Assembly (NCBI GenBank): GCA_030550175.1
Contig: JAUQPW010000009.1
Location: 5,459 to 69,458 of the forward strand
From: a bacterium
GTDB taxonomy: Bacteria > Moduliflexota > Moduliflexia > Moduliflexales > JAUQPW01
Length of the DNA: 64,000 bases
Direction: 5' to 3'
Positions 32,061 through 40,867 of the stretch are shown one piece after another. Position 1 is the stretch's first letter; the number at the start of each line of letters is the position of its first letter. The position numbers were made by a program, and so were the translations under genes. The notes below the pieces were generated by a model, which saw only the letters and a program-made list of their open reading frames with translations, was not told the origin of the DNA and ran no database searches.

Positions 32061-33449
32061 CTATACTTCCTTCCATTTCATCTTGACCTGGAGTCCGGAC
32101 CTCTGCACCAACCTTTTGGAAAGTTGGTCGACCCTTGAATAAATCTCTTCCTCGTTGATTCTGGTGAATTTCCCCCTTTCCAAAACTATTTCCCCATCAA
32201 TGAGCACGGTATCTACACTATGTCCACTCACCGAATAAATCAGGTTATTGATAGGGTGAAGAAGGGGTTGCCATTCGACATGGCGGGTATCAAAAAGAAC
32301 CAGGTCGGCCTTTTTTCCTACCTGGATAGAGCCGACCTGATCTTGCATCAGCAAGGCTCTGGCTCCATGAAGAGTGCCCATTTCTAGAGCGGTTTCGGCG
32401 GGAATCTGGTTCACATCCATGCGACTATCTTTATAGAGGGTAGCCACCAGGTACATGATCCGACACATATTAAAATGGTTGGAACCATTACCGCTATCTC
32501 CCCCCAGGGCTACACAAATACCTTTGTCTAGCATTTCTGGGAAACGACCGTATCGGGTAATTCCCTTCATATGGCGCAAGGCAGCCGTAGGACAATGAAC
32601 CACACTCACCTGGTATTGTTGGAGGAGTTCTAGATCCTTTTCCTGGATATAAACCATATGAACGAGTTTAACATTTTTATCTAAAATTCCTAACTCTTCC
32701 AAATGAGAGACGGGAACGGTATCTTTGGTGCCTGAAGCCGGATCTGTGGCCAGATGCATCATGCTAAAACCGACTCCATAGGAATCCGCCAGGCTTTTGG
32801 CCCCCTTTATTAATTCATCGGAGACGGTTCCGATTCCCAGAATAATAGGCCAGGCTAAAATCCTGGAATCACGGCCATTGGGGTGATTCCTGTTACGATT
32901 AATTTGAGATAACAGAGCTTCATTTTGTTTCAAGGCTTCTTCCGTTGTCTGCCTCATTCGCAGGGGGGTTTGGGGCAAATCCCAGGTCCAGCGTCCCACA
33001 ATCCCTCGAATACCGATATCTTCTGCTGCCTGTACCACACTTTCCACATCAAAAAGGGTTCCGGCTTCACAGAAAGTTGTGGTTCCGGTCCGGATCATCT
33101 CGATAAAGGCAAGCATGGCGGAGTAGTATTCCTCTTCGGGAGTTAAGATGGAATAAACCGGAAAAAGCCACTCCGGGAGCCAGGCATGAAGAGGGGCATC
33201 ATCCGGAACTAAGCCTCGGATAATATGCTCGGAGAGATGAACATGGGCGTCGACAAATCCCGGAAGAATAACCTTTTCCCGGGCATCCAGAACCCGGTCT
33301 GCTTGAAATTTCCACCGAATTTCTTCAGACTTTCCTACATCTACAATTCTATTACCTTCGATGGCAACACTTCCATTTGGAATAATCCGTCTTTCGGCAT
33401 CCAAAGTTATCAACAGGCCATTCTCGATGAGTAAAGTTTTGGAAGACAT
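32061..33449 (-). CDS. Amidohydrolase family (MTA/SAH deaminase-like) protein
   Basis: PGFVDAHVH, GTTT, H, HMV, HCP, GGDS, GSIQVGKKADL. Confidence 0.85.
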   Translation of the reverse strand: MSSKTLLIENGLLITLDAERRIIPNGSVAIEGNRIVDVGKSEEIRWKFQADRVLDAREKVILPGFVDAHVHLSEHIIRGLVPDDAPLHAWLPEWLFPVYSILTPEEEYYSAMLAFIEMIRTGTTTFCEAGTLFDVESVVQAAEDIGIRGIVGRWTWDLPQTPLRMRQTTEEALKQNEALLSQINRNRNHPNGRDSRILAWPIILGIGTVSDELIKGAKSLADSYGVGFSMMHLATDPASGTKDTVPVSHLEELGILDKNVKLVHMVYIQEKDLELLQQYQVSVVHCPTAALRHMKGITRYGRFPEMLDKGICVALGGDSGNGSNHFNMCRIMYLVATLYKDSRMDVNQIPAETALEMGTLHGARALLMQDQVGSIQVGKKADLVLFDTRHVEWQPLLHPINNLIYSVSGHSVDTVLIDGEIVLERGKFTRINEEEIYSRVDQLSKRLVQRSGLQVKMKWKEV

Positions 33450-33467: not shown

Positions 33468-34781
33468 TTATAATTTCTCAAAAACCTCTGTAGCAGCGGC
33501 GAGGGTTTTCTCGATATCCTCCTCGGTATGGGCCGCCGAGACAAAACCGGCTTCGAATTGTGAGGGAGCAAAATAAATGCCATGTTCCAGCATCAATCCG
33601 AAATATCTGGCATATCTTTTCGTATCGGAAGTTTTAGCCGTGGCATAATTGGTTACCGGAGTATCTGTGAAAAAGAGGCACATCATCGAACCGACCCGGG
33701 TGGTATAAACAGGAACTCCGGCCTTAGCTGCACATTCTTGAAGACCCTGAGCCAATCGGGCAGATTTTTCTTCCAGATCTTTATAAAAACCGGGTTGAGA
33801 AATAATCTTGAGGGTTTCAATTCCGGCGGTCATGGCCAGGGGATTGCCAGAGAGGGTCCCCGCCTGATAAACCGGACCGAGAGGGGCTACTTTTTCCATG
33901 ATTTCCCTTTTCCCTCCATACGCCCCAACCGGGAGTCCTCCTCCGATGATCTTTCCCAAACAGGTCAGGTCTGCCTGGATTCCGTAGAGCTCCTGCGCCC
34001 CCCCCCAGGCAACCCGAAATCCTGTAATGACTTCATCAAAAATCAGGACAATACCATGCTCTAAAGTTAACTCTCGAAGACCTTCTAAAAATCCCTTAGC
34101 CGGTGGAATCACTCCTACATTTCCGGCAATGGGTTCTAAAATAACGGCCGCAATCTCACCCCGATTGGCTTCGATTACCTGTTTGACTGCATCCAGATTG
34201 TTATAGGGAACGGTCAGGGTGTGTTTCGCATAGTCTACCGGTACCCCCGGACTATCCGGGATTCCTAAGGTTAAAACCCCCGATCCTGCCTTAACCAGTA
34301 ACCCATCGGAATGACCGTGATAACAGGCCTCAAATTTGATGATTTTATCCCGACCTGTAAATCCTCGAGCCAACCGAATGGCACTCATGGTCGCTTCGGT
34401 TCCGGAGTTAACCATACGAACCAGCTCTATGGAAGGAAACGCCTGGGTCACCATCCGGGCCAGAGTAACTTCCAGTTCCGTGGGAGCCCCATAGCTGGTT
34501 CCCCGTTCACAGGCTTCCTTTAAGGCCGAAACGATTTGGGGATGGGCATGCCCTAAAATCATAGGCCCCCAGGATCCTACATAATCTATATACTCCTTAC
34601 CGTCTACATCATAAATCTTAGACCCCTGAGCCCGCTGGATAAATCGAGGGGTTCCTCCAACGGCCTTAAAGGCCCTTACCGGACTGTTAACTCCTCCGGG
34701 AAGATATTTTTGGGCTTCTGCAAATAATATTTCAGATTTGGTCATCGGCTCATTGTCCGTTGTCCGTCCTCTATTGTCCAT
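33468..34781 (-). CDS. hemL: Glutamate-1-semialdehyde 2,1-aminomutase
   Basis: [55 protein letters not shown]. Confidence 0.96.
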
Positions 34782-34877: not shown

Positions 34878-36149
34878 TCACTCGTCGACCTCTAAATTAA
34901 ACAACTTTTGAATTGCCTGAATATAAATGGAACCTTCATCGGTGTAGGAGAGTTTTTTCAAAGCTACCAAAGGGTCGTGGAGAATTTTATTGGTGATCAG
35001 ATTGACCATGATTTGGATTTTTTCCAGATCTTTTGGGGAAAGATTTTTCAGCCCCGGCAATCGTCGTTCCAGTTCCGTTCTGCTAATGGTTTCAATCTTT
35101 TTCCGTAGAGCTTTAATAGTCGGAACGACGTCCTGGGCTTTGAGCCACTTGGAAAATTGAAGAACTTCTTGCTGGATAATCTCTTCAGCCCGTTGAGCCT
35201 CTTTGGCTCGCTCTCGAATATTGGCTTCTACCACCGCCTGCAGGTCATCGATGTCATAGAGATAAACGTTATCCAGTTGATTAATATCCGGATCCAGATT
35301 TCGGGGTACCGCGATATCAATCAAGAACATGGGACGATTCTTCCTCAATGAAAGAAGCGCTTTGATATCCTCGTACTTTAAGAGATAATGGGGGGATCCG
35401 GTAGAACTGATGACAATATCTATTGTGATTAAAGCTTCTGATATCTGATCAAATGGAATAGCCGTTCCTTGAAAGGCTTTAGCCAGCTCAACCGCTCGCT
35501 CGTAGGTTCGATTGGTTACAAGAACCCTTTGAACCCCTTCTGAAATGAGGTGGCGTACCGCCAGCTCACCCATTTCACCGGCTCCGATAATCAAGACTTG
35601 CTTATCATGGAGGCTTCCAAATATTTTTTTGGCCAATTCGACCGCAGCAAAACTAACCGATACGGCATTCCTGGAAATTCCGGTCTCTGTGCGAACAGCT
35701 TTTGCAACCTTGAAAGCCTTATGCATCAGAGCATGTAAGAAAAAACGGGTCGTATTACTTTCACAGGCTATCTTATAAGCTGCTTTCATTTGGCCCAGAA
35801 TCTGAGGCTCTCCCAAAACCATCGAATCTAAACTGGAAGCAACTCTGAAAATATGGGCCACCGCCTGATCTCCTTCATAAACATACAGATATTTTTCCAG
35901 AATAGACATCTCCACTTGCTGATAGGTTGCAAGAAACTCTTTAACAGTTCTGATTCCTTCCTCTGTAGAAGAAACCACCGAGTAAACCTCTACCCGGTTG
36001 CAGGTGGAAATAATAAAATTTTCCAGAATTCCCTCGGCCTGGTGCAATTGAGTGAGCGGCTTTTCCAGCTCTTTATCAAAGAAGGCCAATTTCTCCCGAA
36101 TTTCTATGGGAGCCGTGCGGTGATTAAGTCCTACAACGATGATATTCAT
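34878..36149 (-). CDS. hemA: Glutamyl-tRNA reductase
   Basis: GLNHRTAP, STCNRVE, SLDSMVLGEPQILGQ, IGAGEMG, DIAVPR. Confidence 0.96.
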   Translation of the reverse strand: MNIIVVGLNHRTAPIEIREKLAFFDKELEKPLTQLHQAEGILENFIISTCNRVEVYSVVSSTEEGIRTVKEFLATYQQVEMSILEKYLYVYEGDQAVAHIFRVASSLDSMVLGEPQILGQMKAAYKIACESNTTRFFLHALMHKAFKVAKAVRTETGISRNAVSVSFAAVELAKKIFGSLHDKQVLIIGAGEMGELAVRHLISEGVQRVLVTNRTYERAVELAKAFQGTAIPFDQISEALITIDIVISSTGSPHYLLKYEDIKALLSLRKNRPMFLIDIAVPRNLDPDINQLDNVYLYDIDDLQAVVEANIRERAKEAQRAEEIIQQEVLQFSKWLKAQDVVPTIKALRKKIETISRTELERRLPGLKNLSPKDLEKIQIMVNLITNKILHDPLVALKKLSYTDEGSIYIQAIQKLFNLEVDE

Positions 36150-36171
36150 GTTATATTTTACGTTTCAAGTT

Positions 36172-37008
36172 TTAAAAAAGATGTAATCTTCTTTCAGAAA
36201 AATAATAAATCGCCATGAAGGTAATCAGAATGTAAGAGAATCCCAGAATGGTCAAATAAGAAGCCTTTCTTCCTCTCCAACCTGCAGTAACCCGGGCATA
36301 GATAAGGATGGCATAAATAATCCAAACAATGATGGCAAAAATGGTTGTCGGATCCCGGCTCAAGGGATTTACTCCTCTAAACTTGGCCCAGATGGCTCCG
36401 ATGATAATGGCTAAGGTCAACAAGGGAAATCCGATTAACAAGGCCCGATAGCTTAAATTATCCAGAATTTCCAGAGAAGGAAGCCGATAATAAAGAGCTC
36501 CCGGTTTTTTTGACTTGAGCTGACGCTCCTGAATAAGATACATGACGGCTGCACACGAGGCAATGGCAAAAACTGCATAACCCAGAATGGCTACCACGGC
36601 ATGAAGACCAATCCAATAACTCTGGATGGCAGGGAGTGAAGCCTTTCCCGCCGGCAGTGAATAGGCATAGATAAACAGCATAAAAGCAATGGGAATAACA
36701 AAAGCCCCCAAGACGGGAATATGGTACTTAAGATCGGCAATCAAAAATACCAAAATCGTGGCCCAGATAAAAAGAAAGAGAGTTTCTTTGGAATTGGAAA
36801 AAGGAGAGATCCGAATAATGGTAAGTTTAAATAAGATGGTAATGGTATCTAAAGTAAAACTTACCACCGTCAATGCAGTAGCAAGCCGGGCCAAAAAGGG
36901 CTTTTTCGTAACAAGAAAAGAAAGATACCCCAGGGTCGCCAAAAAGAAGATAACTAAGAGAATCTCGAATAAAAAAAAGTTTATAATATGAGTGGTATCC
37001 ATACGCAA
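36172..37008 (-). CDS. ccsA: Cytochrome c biogenesis CcsA / HemX-like membrane protein
   Basis: About 8 TMs, WIGLH, LPSLEILD, GAIWA, GWRGRK, C-terminal His; the WWD segment is degenerate; immediately upstream of hemA. Confidence 0.75.
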   Translation of the reverse strand: MRMDTTHIINFFLFEILLVIFFLATLGYLSFLVTKKPFLARLATALTVVSFTLDTITILFKLTIIRISPFSNSKETLFLFIWATILVFLIADLKYHIPVLGAFVIPIAFMLFIYAYSLPAGKASLPAIQSYWIGLHAVVAILGYAVFAIASCAAVMYLIQERQLKSKKPGALYYRLPSLEILDNLSYRALLIGFPLLTLAIIIGAIWAKFRGVNPLSRDPTTIFAIIVWIIYAILIYARVTAGWRGRKASYLTILGFSYILITFMAIYYFSERRLHLF

Positions 37009-37009
37009 G

Positions 37010-37513
37010 TTAATAAGGCCAGTAGAGGGCGTATTTTTTATCGATAGCCTCTTTGATGGCGGCCAGGGAATAGCCTTTTCCCTTCATTTCATACGCCTCC
37101 AGCGTAATAGACCGACAGATCTCTCAGCCTGCAGAATGGGTATCCACATAACAATCTAAATTATTTTGATGGTGATGGGTCTTATAACATCCACAGTAAC
37201 AGGGCAGGTTTTCGACCAGCTCCGGATCTGTTTGGGCAATCTGATAAGCTAAAGCCGTTTTATCGGTAAACAGAGTGGGAGATAAGGTCTTGGGTCGAGG
37301 AGATCGAGGTATGGCCGATAGGCTAAATCCGGCCCGTTTTTCGGTTCTGAAACCAGAAGCCGACCGGGATCGCATCCCCAGAAGGAGATATATATCAACA
37401 CCAACGATCAAAACCAGTAAAAAGATCAATGCTACAACGGCAGAGCGACTCGCAGCCAACCAATCCAAAAAACTCTTTTTCGGTTTTCCTGGATTTTGAG
37501 TATTCTCCTCCAT
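37010..37513 (-). CDS. Membrane-anchored PCYCGC-motif selenoprotein (Sec at TGA 37124-37126, UxxC), 167 aa
   Basis: The ORF-track protein ends ...PCYCGC...HSAG-TGA. The frame continues EICRSITLEAYEMKGKGYSLAAIKEAIDKKYALYWPY-TAA (37010), abutting the ccsA start. Hairpin TACGC-TGGAG-GCGTA begins 17 nt after UGA. Confidence 0.8.
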
Positions 37514-37802
37514 TTAAAAATCCTTTTTACTACAACAGGTTATTTCATCAACCTTATAAGTTTCTTAAAGGCTTTAATCGCTTCCCAAAGATTTCGTTAT
37601 TATTTTATTACAAGCCTTACGAACAAAGCAAGAAATATTTTAACAACCGACATATTATATCCGAGAATCAAGAAATCTCGAAAAAGAATCCTTGTAACTG
37701 TAACAATTTCCTACGAAAATCACCCTACGATTTTCATGATTTGTGGCGACCCAACAAGTCATGACCGTTTATAGATATCACTTTTTTCTGTCCTGGCCCC
37801 CC

Positions 37803-38008
37803 TAGGCGCCAGGTTAAGCTGAAAAGCCCCGTCAGGGGCCAAAGGTTGGTAGCCTCTGACGTAAGTCGGGGGATTCAGAAATTCAGAATTTTTTCAAGCT
37901 CCCTGACTGCATCCTGTTAAACAGGTCACCCCTGACGAGGCTTAGAGGGTCCTGTTATCCTGTTTCCCCTGGCTTACGCCAGGGGTTATCAACAGGTTGC
38001 CCCGATGG
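37803..38008. mobile_element. Family A MITE-like element (copy 3, reverse orientation, one TIR lost)
   Basis: Reverse complement aligns with about 95-296 (GGGGCAACCTGTT...CAGGGAGCTTGAAAAAATTC...GGCTACCAACC...GCCCCTGA...CTTAACCTGGCG). Confidence 0.7.
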
Positions 38009-38083
38009 TTCGGACAATTCAGAGGGTCGGCAAAAGAACCGCCGGGTTGGAGTGGTCATCGATACCGGTCATTGAAAAAAATA

Positions 38084-38246
38084 AAGACCTCTGGAAGGTT
38101 TAAAAACCTTCGAGGCCTCAAGTACGGGAATAAAAAGAACCGGGGTAAGTAGTTTACTTTCCTGGAGACGCCGGCATGGCGCCTCTACAAGTACCTGTAA
38201 GGGCAACCCCTTAGAAGGGGGCCAGGACCCGGTGGGTTGCCCTTAC
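38084..38246. repeat. Cluster of short REP-like palindromes downstream of clpB
   Basis: GAAGGTTTAAAAACCTTC; GAGACGCC...GGCGCCTCTAC; GTAAGGGCAACCC...GGGTTGCCCTTAC. Confidence 0.55.
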
Positions 38247-38275
38247 CAATGGGTTATTTTCGAGCAGAATGGGCA

Positions 38276-40867
<2,592 letters not shown>

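Follow-up and report, generated by a model that had tools for sequence, protein, structure and literature searches.

The stretch of DNA analysed here, called the window below, comprises 64,000 nucleotides of contig JAUQPW010000009.1 from a bacterium of the phylum Moduliflexota (assembly GCA_030550175.1). On its reverse strand, positions 37010 to 37513 very probably hold a true selenoprotein gene from the CYCXC/PCYCGC family, which is already known (NF041379, PF13798, formerly OS_HP4), and its in-frame UGA codon 130 would be decoded as selenocysteine (Sec, U). In the list of open reading frames (ORFs), the frame 37124 to 37513 closes at the TGA at 37126-37124 after 129 residues. When this TGA is read as Sec, 37 further codons (...HSAG-U-EIC-RSITLEAY...IDKKYALYWPY) lead to the TAA at 37012-37010, giving a protein of 167 residues with Sec as U130. 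An earlier reading made from the letters of the window alone (the sequence-only reading) had described the frame to the TAA, the UxxC motif, a hairpin behind it and a gap of one base to the next gene, and its coordinates and motifs were all correct on re-reading. The family as such is known; what is new is a member in a little-known phylum, directly before heme-synthesis genes.

Evidence for selenocysteine at the TGA

The family match extends across the TGA. Profile NF041379 covers residues 74-161 with its positions 2-89 of 90 (111.7 bits, curated cut-off 90), and PF13798 (PCYCGC) covers residues 84-162 (51.5 bits, gathering threshold 25). Both hallmarks of the family are present, the CYCXC motif as C105-Y-C107-G-C109 and the downstream U/CxxC as U130-E-I-C133. 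A HMMER search of 1.84 billion protein representatives gave 1234 matches at E <= 0.001, the best 150 of which were aligned together with three earlier matches and the query. Of these 154 rows, 136 have Cys in the column of U130 (for example P0005, with HGDD-C-PMC opposite the Sec site), one each has W, S and D, and 15 proteins end exactly before it, which we read as the signature of gene calls truncated at a TGA. The sequence-only reading had assigned the protein to the PCYCGC family with Sec at the first Cys of an H-x3-CxxC motif, and had expected Cys opposite the UGA and homology beyond it; both the assignment and the expectation are borne out. One database protein, P0124, carries Trp in the Sec column (NHAAG-W-GIC), suggesting that a Sec-form gene was called with a code in which TGA means Trp.

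On the level of genomes, 379 relatives were confirmed in public genomes with a profile of 12 close rows; 80 loci were kept and complemented by 5 others. The Sec/Cys state of these 85 loci was assigned by motif pattern and, for the remaining loci, by eye. TGA stands at the Sec column in 34 of them, from several phyla, and 51 are without TGA. The same TGA, in the same gene order, is found in the congeneric genome, a second species of the genus. Contigs of four sequencing runs are identical over 36900-37600; they stem from a single study, and this DNA was possibly derived from them. With the TGA recurring in the congener and in these contigs, the codon is not an assembly slip.

The genome (5.45 Mb in 184 contigs, 97.6% complete) encodes the Sec machinery that the sequence-only reading had called for: selB (415 bits), selA (627 bits), selD (389 bits) and a tRNA-Sec (74.5 bits; called by ARAGORN as SeC with anticodon tca) were found, all above their family cut-offs. 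The selD gene itself (G000:C168:5567-6493, L010) contains one in-frame TGA, and the selenophosphate synthetase of this organism is thus probably a selenoprotein too.

That Sec-containing members had been noted before and lacked a function, as the sequence-only reading stated, agrees with the NF041379 entry and with the tables of two selenoproteome reviews, which list the OS_HP4/CYCXC family as UxxC and give no function (PMC9312934, PMC13188914). According to these tables, the name OS_HP4 stems from ocean-sampling selenoproteome work (PMC9312934, PMC13188914). Beyond the two reviews, a search of the full-text literature on the family turned up only a lipoproteome paper, whose record of a PCYCGC lipoprotein states no function (PMC13068155).

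A co-varying hairpin downstream of the UGA

Bacterial Sec insertion sequence (SECIS) elements, as described in the literature on bSECISearch, are hairpins shortly 3' of the UGA with a G in the apical loop. The hairpin in the window agrees with this rule in spacing and apical G: it lies at nucleotides 21-35 counted from the U of the UGA, i.e. 17 nucleotides past the codon, and its loop carries UGGA. For comparison, 30 regular Sec loci yielded 27 distinct segments of 48 nucleotides, and 19 Cys forms served as contrast. In all 27 Sec-form segments the five inner pairs are formed in the same register, with U26 and G27 of the loop invariant. Pair 21:35 is UA in 18, GC in 5, CG in 3 and AU in 1 of them (compensatory changes in 9 sequences), pair 22:34 is AU in 10, GC in 10, GU in 5 and UA in 2 (compensatory changes in 12). 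The covariation score was 0.333 compared with 0.125 +/- 0.022 after shuffling, none of 500 shuffles reaching the observed value, and was at most 0.191 with slid partners. In the Cys forms, in contrast, the same columns pair in 34% of cells, which is the shuffle level, with L058 as the exception. The SECIS-like hairpin that the sequence-only reading had pointed out is therefore shared, with covariation, by the Sec forms and not kept in the Cys forms. Four irregular Sec forms (L069, L087, L090, L097) have a hairpin with a G-containing loop at the same distance. A scan of 36000-38300 against Rfam at E <= 10 found no SECIS or other credible family.

Two of these loci deserve a separate remark. At L058:6286-6333, a Cys form (TGC) retains, complete, the SECIS-like hairpin GAGGCGCUGGAGGCGUCUC that is found in its sister clade of Sec forms, and looks like a recent replacement of Sec by Cys. 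At L097:6217-6400, a homologue from a metagenome-assembled genome (MAG) of Nitrospiraceae has two in-frame TGAs (HAAA-U-NL-U, a UxxU form); the hairpin behind them is longer and has GGUC as its loop.

Protein anatomy, topology and evolution

After long multidomain rows had been removed by hand, 111 of the 132 full-length Cys-type rows were aligned. Eight columns, and no others, are invariant: C105, C107, C109, H115, C121, H126, C/U130 and C133. With this alignment, AlphaFold2 predicted an all-helical protein with an N-terminal helix at residues 15-46 (mean predicted local distance difference test score, pLDDT, 87.6; 96-98 over residues 70-160). The family profile, run against the sequences of the PDB, gave nothing relevant.

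Most homologues are rich in Lys and Arg before the hydrophobic anchor and poor in them after it; the bias of the window protein itself is weak (three before, two after). In 21 of the 85 loci, all from Bacillota or Chloroflexota, a strict lipobox takes the place of the anchor. Because of this charge distribution, the lipobox forms and the PCYCGC lipoprotein mentioned above, the Cys/His-rich domain is most likely located outside the cytoplasm, and the single N-terminal transmembrane segment and extracytoplasmic domain of the sequence-only reading can be retained at that strength.

A tree was calculated from 83 of the 85 domains, leaving out L026 (masked bases) and L056 (contig end). It needs at least seven changes between Sec and Cys, and well-supported branches force at least three. 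The window protein and its congener belong to a supported clade whose 10 rows are all Sec forms; its other members are Methylomirabilota-type sequences and sequences from deltaproteobacterial/Acidiferrales MAGs. L035, labelled 'Patescibacteria group', clusters with the Methylomirabilota sequences in this tree.

Possible structural relation to CcmH

CcmH is a thiol-disulfide oxidoreductase of cytochrome c maturation System I. The best PDB hit of Foldseek was the periplasmic domain of CcmH, 2hl7 (E 1.5, target-normalised TM-score 0.54), and CcmH of E. coli, 2kw0, followed at rank 4. VIA-align, which is independent of Foldseek, placed 2hl7_A at rank 2 of 48,161 chains, behind a designed protein, with a root mean square deviation of 3.3 over 69 residues and a Z of 5.1, a value within the range common for helical bundles. 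With hhalign, comparison to 13 CcmH sequences gave a probability of 62% (E 7.5e-5), the CYCGC segment falling on the CcmH Cys motif and the C-terminal helices being aligned. Taken together, these signals make it plausible that the PCYCGC domain is a diverged CcmH-type module.

Gene neighbourhoods and domain fusions

Among the 10 longest family members, three are fusions to CcmH-like or TlpA-like domains: P0148 combines CxxCH, CcmH (37.7 bits) and PCYCGC, P0058 consists of CcmH-like, PCYCGC, CxxCH and PCYCGC parts, and P0154 joins PCYCGC to an AhpC-TSA/Redoxin (TlpA-like) domain.

For the neighbourhoods, 701 called ORFs within 5 kb in 84 loci were clustered and one representative per cluster was annotated. 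A Fer4_5 membrane protein of about 700 residues, weakly NapH/MauN-like, was found in 13 loci, in each case on the same strand. There were TlpA/ResA/DsbE-like thioredoxins in 12 loci, a copper P-type ATPase in 9, COX2/cytochrome c in 8 and DUF1573 in 5; 33 of the 84 loci have at least one of these, counts that are leads and not statistics, as there is no random-gene background and the ORFs come from our own crude caller. In the nearest all-Sec clade, a TlpA-like ORF or one of the Cu-ATPase cluster is located no more than 5 kb away in all 8 rows other than our own, and the deltaproteobacterial operons of this clade also contain DsbA-like proteins and SCO1/SenC. The largest neighbour cluster (19 loci) consisted of TPR/GAF/GGDEF signalling proteins; it is probably an artefact of single linkage and was not used. 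Neighbours and fusions together point to an extracytoplasmic role of the family, presumably in thiol/selenol redox chemistry or metal handling during the maturation of respiratory proteins.

Some neighbourhoods are worth recording individually. Genome G014 has two paralogues (L026 and L023): the Cys form lies 3' of a CcmH gene and thioredoxin-like fragments, the Sec form 5' of ORFs that resemble, by eye, a Rieske protein and cytochrome b. Several neighbours belong to families that NCBI names '(seleno)protein', i.e. Rcas_1661-like DsbA, OS_HP2/DUF1573 and a UxxU metal-binding HMA domain (L029:3764-4555, L072:6767-7345, L035:2738-5602). Gene clusters for envelope redox and metal functions seem to be rich in families alternating between Sec and Cys.

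The locus and the identity of the downstream gene

The features of the locus are compiled in Table 1. The gene order of the operon is CYCXC-hemX-hemA-hemL. Only one base (37009) separates the selenoprotein stop from the TTG at 37008, the first possible start of the next ORF. The number of promoter-like sites in the region is not above that in shuffled sequences. An amidohydrolase gene 3' of hemL (32061-33449, reverse strand) reached 160 bits with the SsnA model, a 'putative selenium metabolism protein' (cut-off 455), and fits better to models of the 5'-deoxyadenosine deaminase type, where it likewise remains below the cut-offs. Because the SsnA score is far too low and other models fit better, this gene is not evidence for a selenium link.

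Table 1. Features of the selenoprotein locus (window coordinates)
Feature	Position	Strand	Basis
CYCXC/PCYCGC-family selenoprotein gene (predicted)	37010..37513	(-)	167 codons + TAA; translation with TGA=U, NF041379 and PF13798 matches
In-frame UGA as probable Sec (U130), position 1 of UxxC	37124..37126	(-)	Cys in 136/154 homologues; TGA in 34/85 loci
SECIS hairpin (predicted), 5-bp stem UACGC/GCGUA, loop UGGAG	37092..37106	(-)	comparison with Sec-form homologues
Cys/His/Sec-rich all-helical domain, residues 76-162	37028..37288	(-)	invariant columns; pLDDT 96-98
N-terminal membrane anchor, about residues 24-46	37376..37444	(-)	AlphaFold2 helix 15-46; hydrophobic stretch, Lys/Arg distribution of homologues
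Promoter-like site TCGAGA-16-TATAAT	37654..37681	(-)	10/12 consensus positions, consensus match only; about 140 nt 5' of ATG
hemX-like PF01578 membrane protein ('ccsA' of the sequence-only reading)	36172..37008	(-)	PF01578 126 bits; start TTG 37008 or ATG 37002
hemA/gtrR, glutamyl-tRNA reductase	34878..36149	(-)	TIGR01035, 502.9 bits
hemL, glutamate-1-semialdehyde 2,1-aminomutase	33468..34781	(-)	TIGR00713, 664.8 bits

The sequence-only reading had called the gene behind the selenoprotein ccsA. This name was rejected. With TIGR03144 (CcsB) the protein scored 167.3 bits, below the cut-off of 187.6. At the site of the WWD motif it reads AKFRGVNPLSRDP...LIYAR, and both the motif and the flanking His are absent. 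The two other PF01578 proteins of the genome keep the Trp-rich core, one being CcmF-like (WGGYWAWDP...FLH) and the other CcmC-like (WNVWWTWDP). No match to ResB/CcsB (PF05140) was found in this 97.6% complete genome. Because there are three PF01578 genes and one CcmH in the genome and no match to ResB, the gene content indicates that cytochrome c is matured by System I.

The 29 best-matching PF01578 loci of other genomes (L125-L152 among the labels) were then sorted by their position. Of the 16 that adjoin hemA, 12 are without the G..WA/WWD pattern, 2 have a degenerate and 2 a canonical one, whereas all 13 loci away from hemA have the canonical WGxYWxWDPKE...LH. Adjacency to hemA combined with loss of WWD could serve as a simple annotation rule for telling HemX from CcsA. 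HemX, according to Choby et al. (2018, PMC5801465), is a membrane protein of PF01578 that keeps GtrR abundance low, and the same source gives hemX-gtrR/hemA adjacency for 106 of 113 genomes. The downstream gene is therefore best read as hemX, a predicted PF01578 regulator of HemA abundance, and not as the heme-lyase gene ccsA.

Conservation of the heme-gene link

The sequence-only reading had called for a test of whether the linkage to ccsA/hemA is conserved; it is not. The CYCXC ORF was among our own crude gene calls in 71 of the 85 loci, and Pfam scans covered 67 neighbours on the upstream side and 68 on the downstream side. PF01578 was the immediate downstream neighbour in 1 of 68 scanned loci, that one coming from the same genus, and linkage to heme genes occurs in 2 of the 85 family loci, both from one genus. 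The phylum is represented by 9 species genomes; the CYCXC gene is present in 2, both of this genus, and the 7 others have neither a CYCXC gene nor, with this query, a HemX match. The position directly 5' of hemX-hemA-hemL is a peculiarity of one genus and not a trait of the family. Striking as it is, the link to the heme operon is thus local, and in part it rested on hemX being read as ccsA.

Proposed function and alternative explanations

Our best explanation as a whole is that the gene encodes a selenoprotein of a known family, that its domain is a CcmH-like redox module of the cell envelope, and that its genomic position is specific to the genus; we consider the chances of this combined picture to be evenly balanced. 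UGA130 would be decoded by SelB and tRNA-Sec, guided by the short hairpin 17 nucleotides 3' of it with UGGA in the loop. Judging from the homologues, the product would have one N-terminal anchor and, outside the cytoplasm, a small all-helical domain with C-x-C-x-C, H, C, H and U-x-x-C. This domain may be a diverged CcmH-like module in which UxxC forms a selenenylsulfide/selenol-thiol redox couple. The module could serve the reducing branch of thiol chemistry in the envelope, in concert with TlpA/ResA/DsbE-like thioredoxins, CcmH and Sco. This branch would maintain the reduced state of cysteines in apo-cytochromes c and/or copper-centre proteins during maturation, and the CxCxC...H...C...H residues probably hold metal. 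We put forward this mechanism, a UxxC couple in a reducing thiol pathway for cytochromes c or copper centres with the other Cys and His residues holding metal, tentatively and with somewhat less than even confidence. The sequence-only reading had suggested a selenol-based reductant or metal chaperone tied to heme synthesis or cytochrome c maturation. The connection to cytochrome maturation gains some support on the level of the family, through TlpA/ResA-like, Sco, Cu-ATPase and COX2 neighbours and CcmH- and TlpA-like fusions, but the connection to heme genes is not conserved.

A number of results speak against parts of this explanation. Folded alone, the SECIS region of the window is no better than shuffled sequences (z = -0.63), so that support for the hairpin comes only from the comparison of homologues; and since the hairpin lies in codons of conserved residues (I/E-T/A-L-E/D-A), coding explains some of its conservation. 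All signals for a relation to CcmH are weak. The window protein has no match to PF03918 (CcmH) at E <= 10, and across 111 family members there were 2 weak matches, the best with E 0.0027; moreover, hhalign puts UxxC in a gap and not opposite the CcmH cysteines. The immediate neighbours of the family genes are heterogeneous, without a dominant family, the wider neighbour counts have the limits given above, and in the flanks of the window gene (26-48 kb) there are no TlpA, Sco or copper genes. Finally, a role in metal binding alone would account for the eight invariant Cys/His residues just as well.

The last point leads to a different function, that of a periplasmic chaperone for copper or another soft metal, in which the Cys, His and Sec residues would bind Cu(I) and pass it among a P1B-type ATPase, Sco and CuA/COX2, Sec being a ligand. 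We think this rather unlikely, although several neighbourhoods are suggestive. In 3 Methylomirabilota-type loci from the nearest clade, the gene immediately upstream, in the same orientation, encodes a Cu-translocating P-type ATPase (TIGR01511, 617 bits, with YHS and HMA), and a Cu-ATPase is within 5 kb in 9 loci overall; the operon of L028 includes SCO1/SenC (PF02630, 92.9 bits), with members of the same cluster in L031 and L033; and 8 Chloroflexota loci have COX2/cupredoxin neighbours. Yet such neighbours occur in a minority of loci, counted without a background control, TlpA, Sco and COX2 agree with a redox function as well, and the fusion partners found are CcmH-like and thioredoxin-like domains, with no HMA or Sco domain among them. 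The chance that the TGA is a true stop, due to a nonsense mutation, a pseudogene or a sequencing error, and that only the truncated protein of 129 residues is made, appears negligible. Gene callers do close the ORF there, database entries P0003 and P0004 are truncated likewise, and the isolated fold of the hairpin is not significant. However, the 37 additional codons match the family hidden Markov model, TGA recurs at this column in 34 of 85 loci from several phyla together with a co-varying hairpin, the genome has a complete Sec machinery, and the codon is the same in the congener and the contigs of four runs.

A further possibility concerns the heme genes themselves, i.e. that the selenoprotein works with them and that read-through at the Sec codon ties the expression of hemX, hemA and hemL to the selenium supply. 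The arrangement invites this idea: the next ORF starts 1-7 nucleotides past the stop (TTG 37008 or ATG 37002), there is no terminator-like site between the two genes and a weak one inside hemX, the second species of the genus has the same order, and altered translation of HemX would matter if it controls HemA/GtrR abundance as in Bacillota (PMC5801465). Nevertheless we regard it as improbable. The linkage is confined to 2 of 85 loci in a single genus, the 7 other genomes of the phylum are without a CYCXC gene and without a HemX match to this query, and the missing Shine-Dalgarno sequence before hemX says little, as hemA too is without an obvious one. An even bolder combination, that the CYCXC domain is an unrecognised CcmH-derived selenol/thiol module of the envelope reducing pathway for cytochromes c and copper centres and that Sec decoding also gates the start of hemX, must be called a long shot. 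If it were true, the output of HemX, a brake on HemA, and hence heme synthesis would depend on how much selenium is available or on the redox or metal state of the protein outside the cytoplasm.

For the explanation we prefer, an envelope redox selenoprotein whose position is genus-specific, the practical consequences are more immediate. Standard gene finders mis-call the gene as 129 residues here, and at least 15 database entries are truncated likewise; correct read-through matters for the annotation of a little-known phylum. The comparative data, i.e. the co-varying SECIS, the neighbours and the fusions, yield testable hypotheses on the function of the family, and the Cys form is carried by culturable Bacillota, for instance Lysinibacillus and Sporosarcina.

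Comparison with known systems

The CYCXC domain resembles CcmH/NrfF/CycL (PF03918; PDB 2hl7, 2kw0), which is likewise a small helical domain of the periplasm, preceded by a membrane anchor or signal. Some CcmH-like proteins have CxCGC...C, comparable to CYCGC...C of the family, a C-terminal helix of the type G-K-S-x-x-E-I...Y-G is common to both, CcmH is the best natural structural match, and tandem fusions with PCYCGC occur. In contrast, the H...C...H...UxxC segment of CYCXC has no counterpart in CcmH, the similarity is weak without a match to PF03918, and the genome of the window encodes a separate CcmH.

The downstream gene product is similar to HemX of Bacillus subtilis and Staphylococcus aureus in being a PF01578 membrane protein of about 275 residues, encoded on the same strand next to hemA/gtrR and without the canonical WWD. 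It differs in gene order, which is hemX then hemA in the window and hemA-hemX in Bacillales; its effect on HemA abundance is a prediction.

The Bacillota lipoproteins of PF13798 share this domain, with the corresponding six Cys and two His and an extracytoplasmic location, as far as the lipoproteome record goes (PMC13068155). The forms from Bacillota and Chloroflexota are, however, lipoproteins with Cys, whereas the window protein has a membrane anchor and probably Sec; between C121 and H126 they also have about 10-14 inserted residues. The closest agreement is with NF041379/OS_HP4 itself: the score is above the cut-off, the CYCXC motif and a UxxC with one Sec are present, and homologues in the Cys form are known. 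In sequence there is no difference to this family, and the window copy stands out by its occurrence in a small phylum and its place directly 5' of hemX-hemA-hemL.

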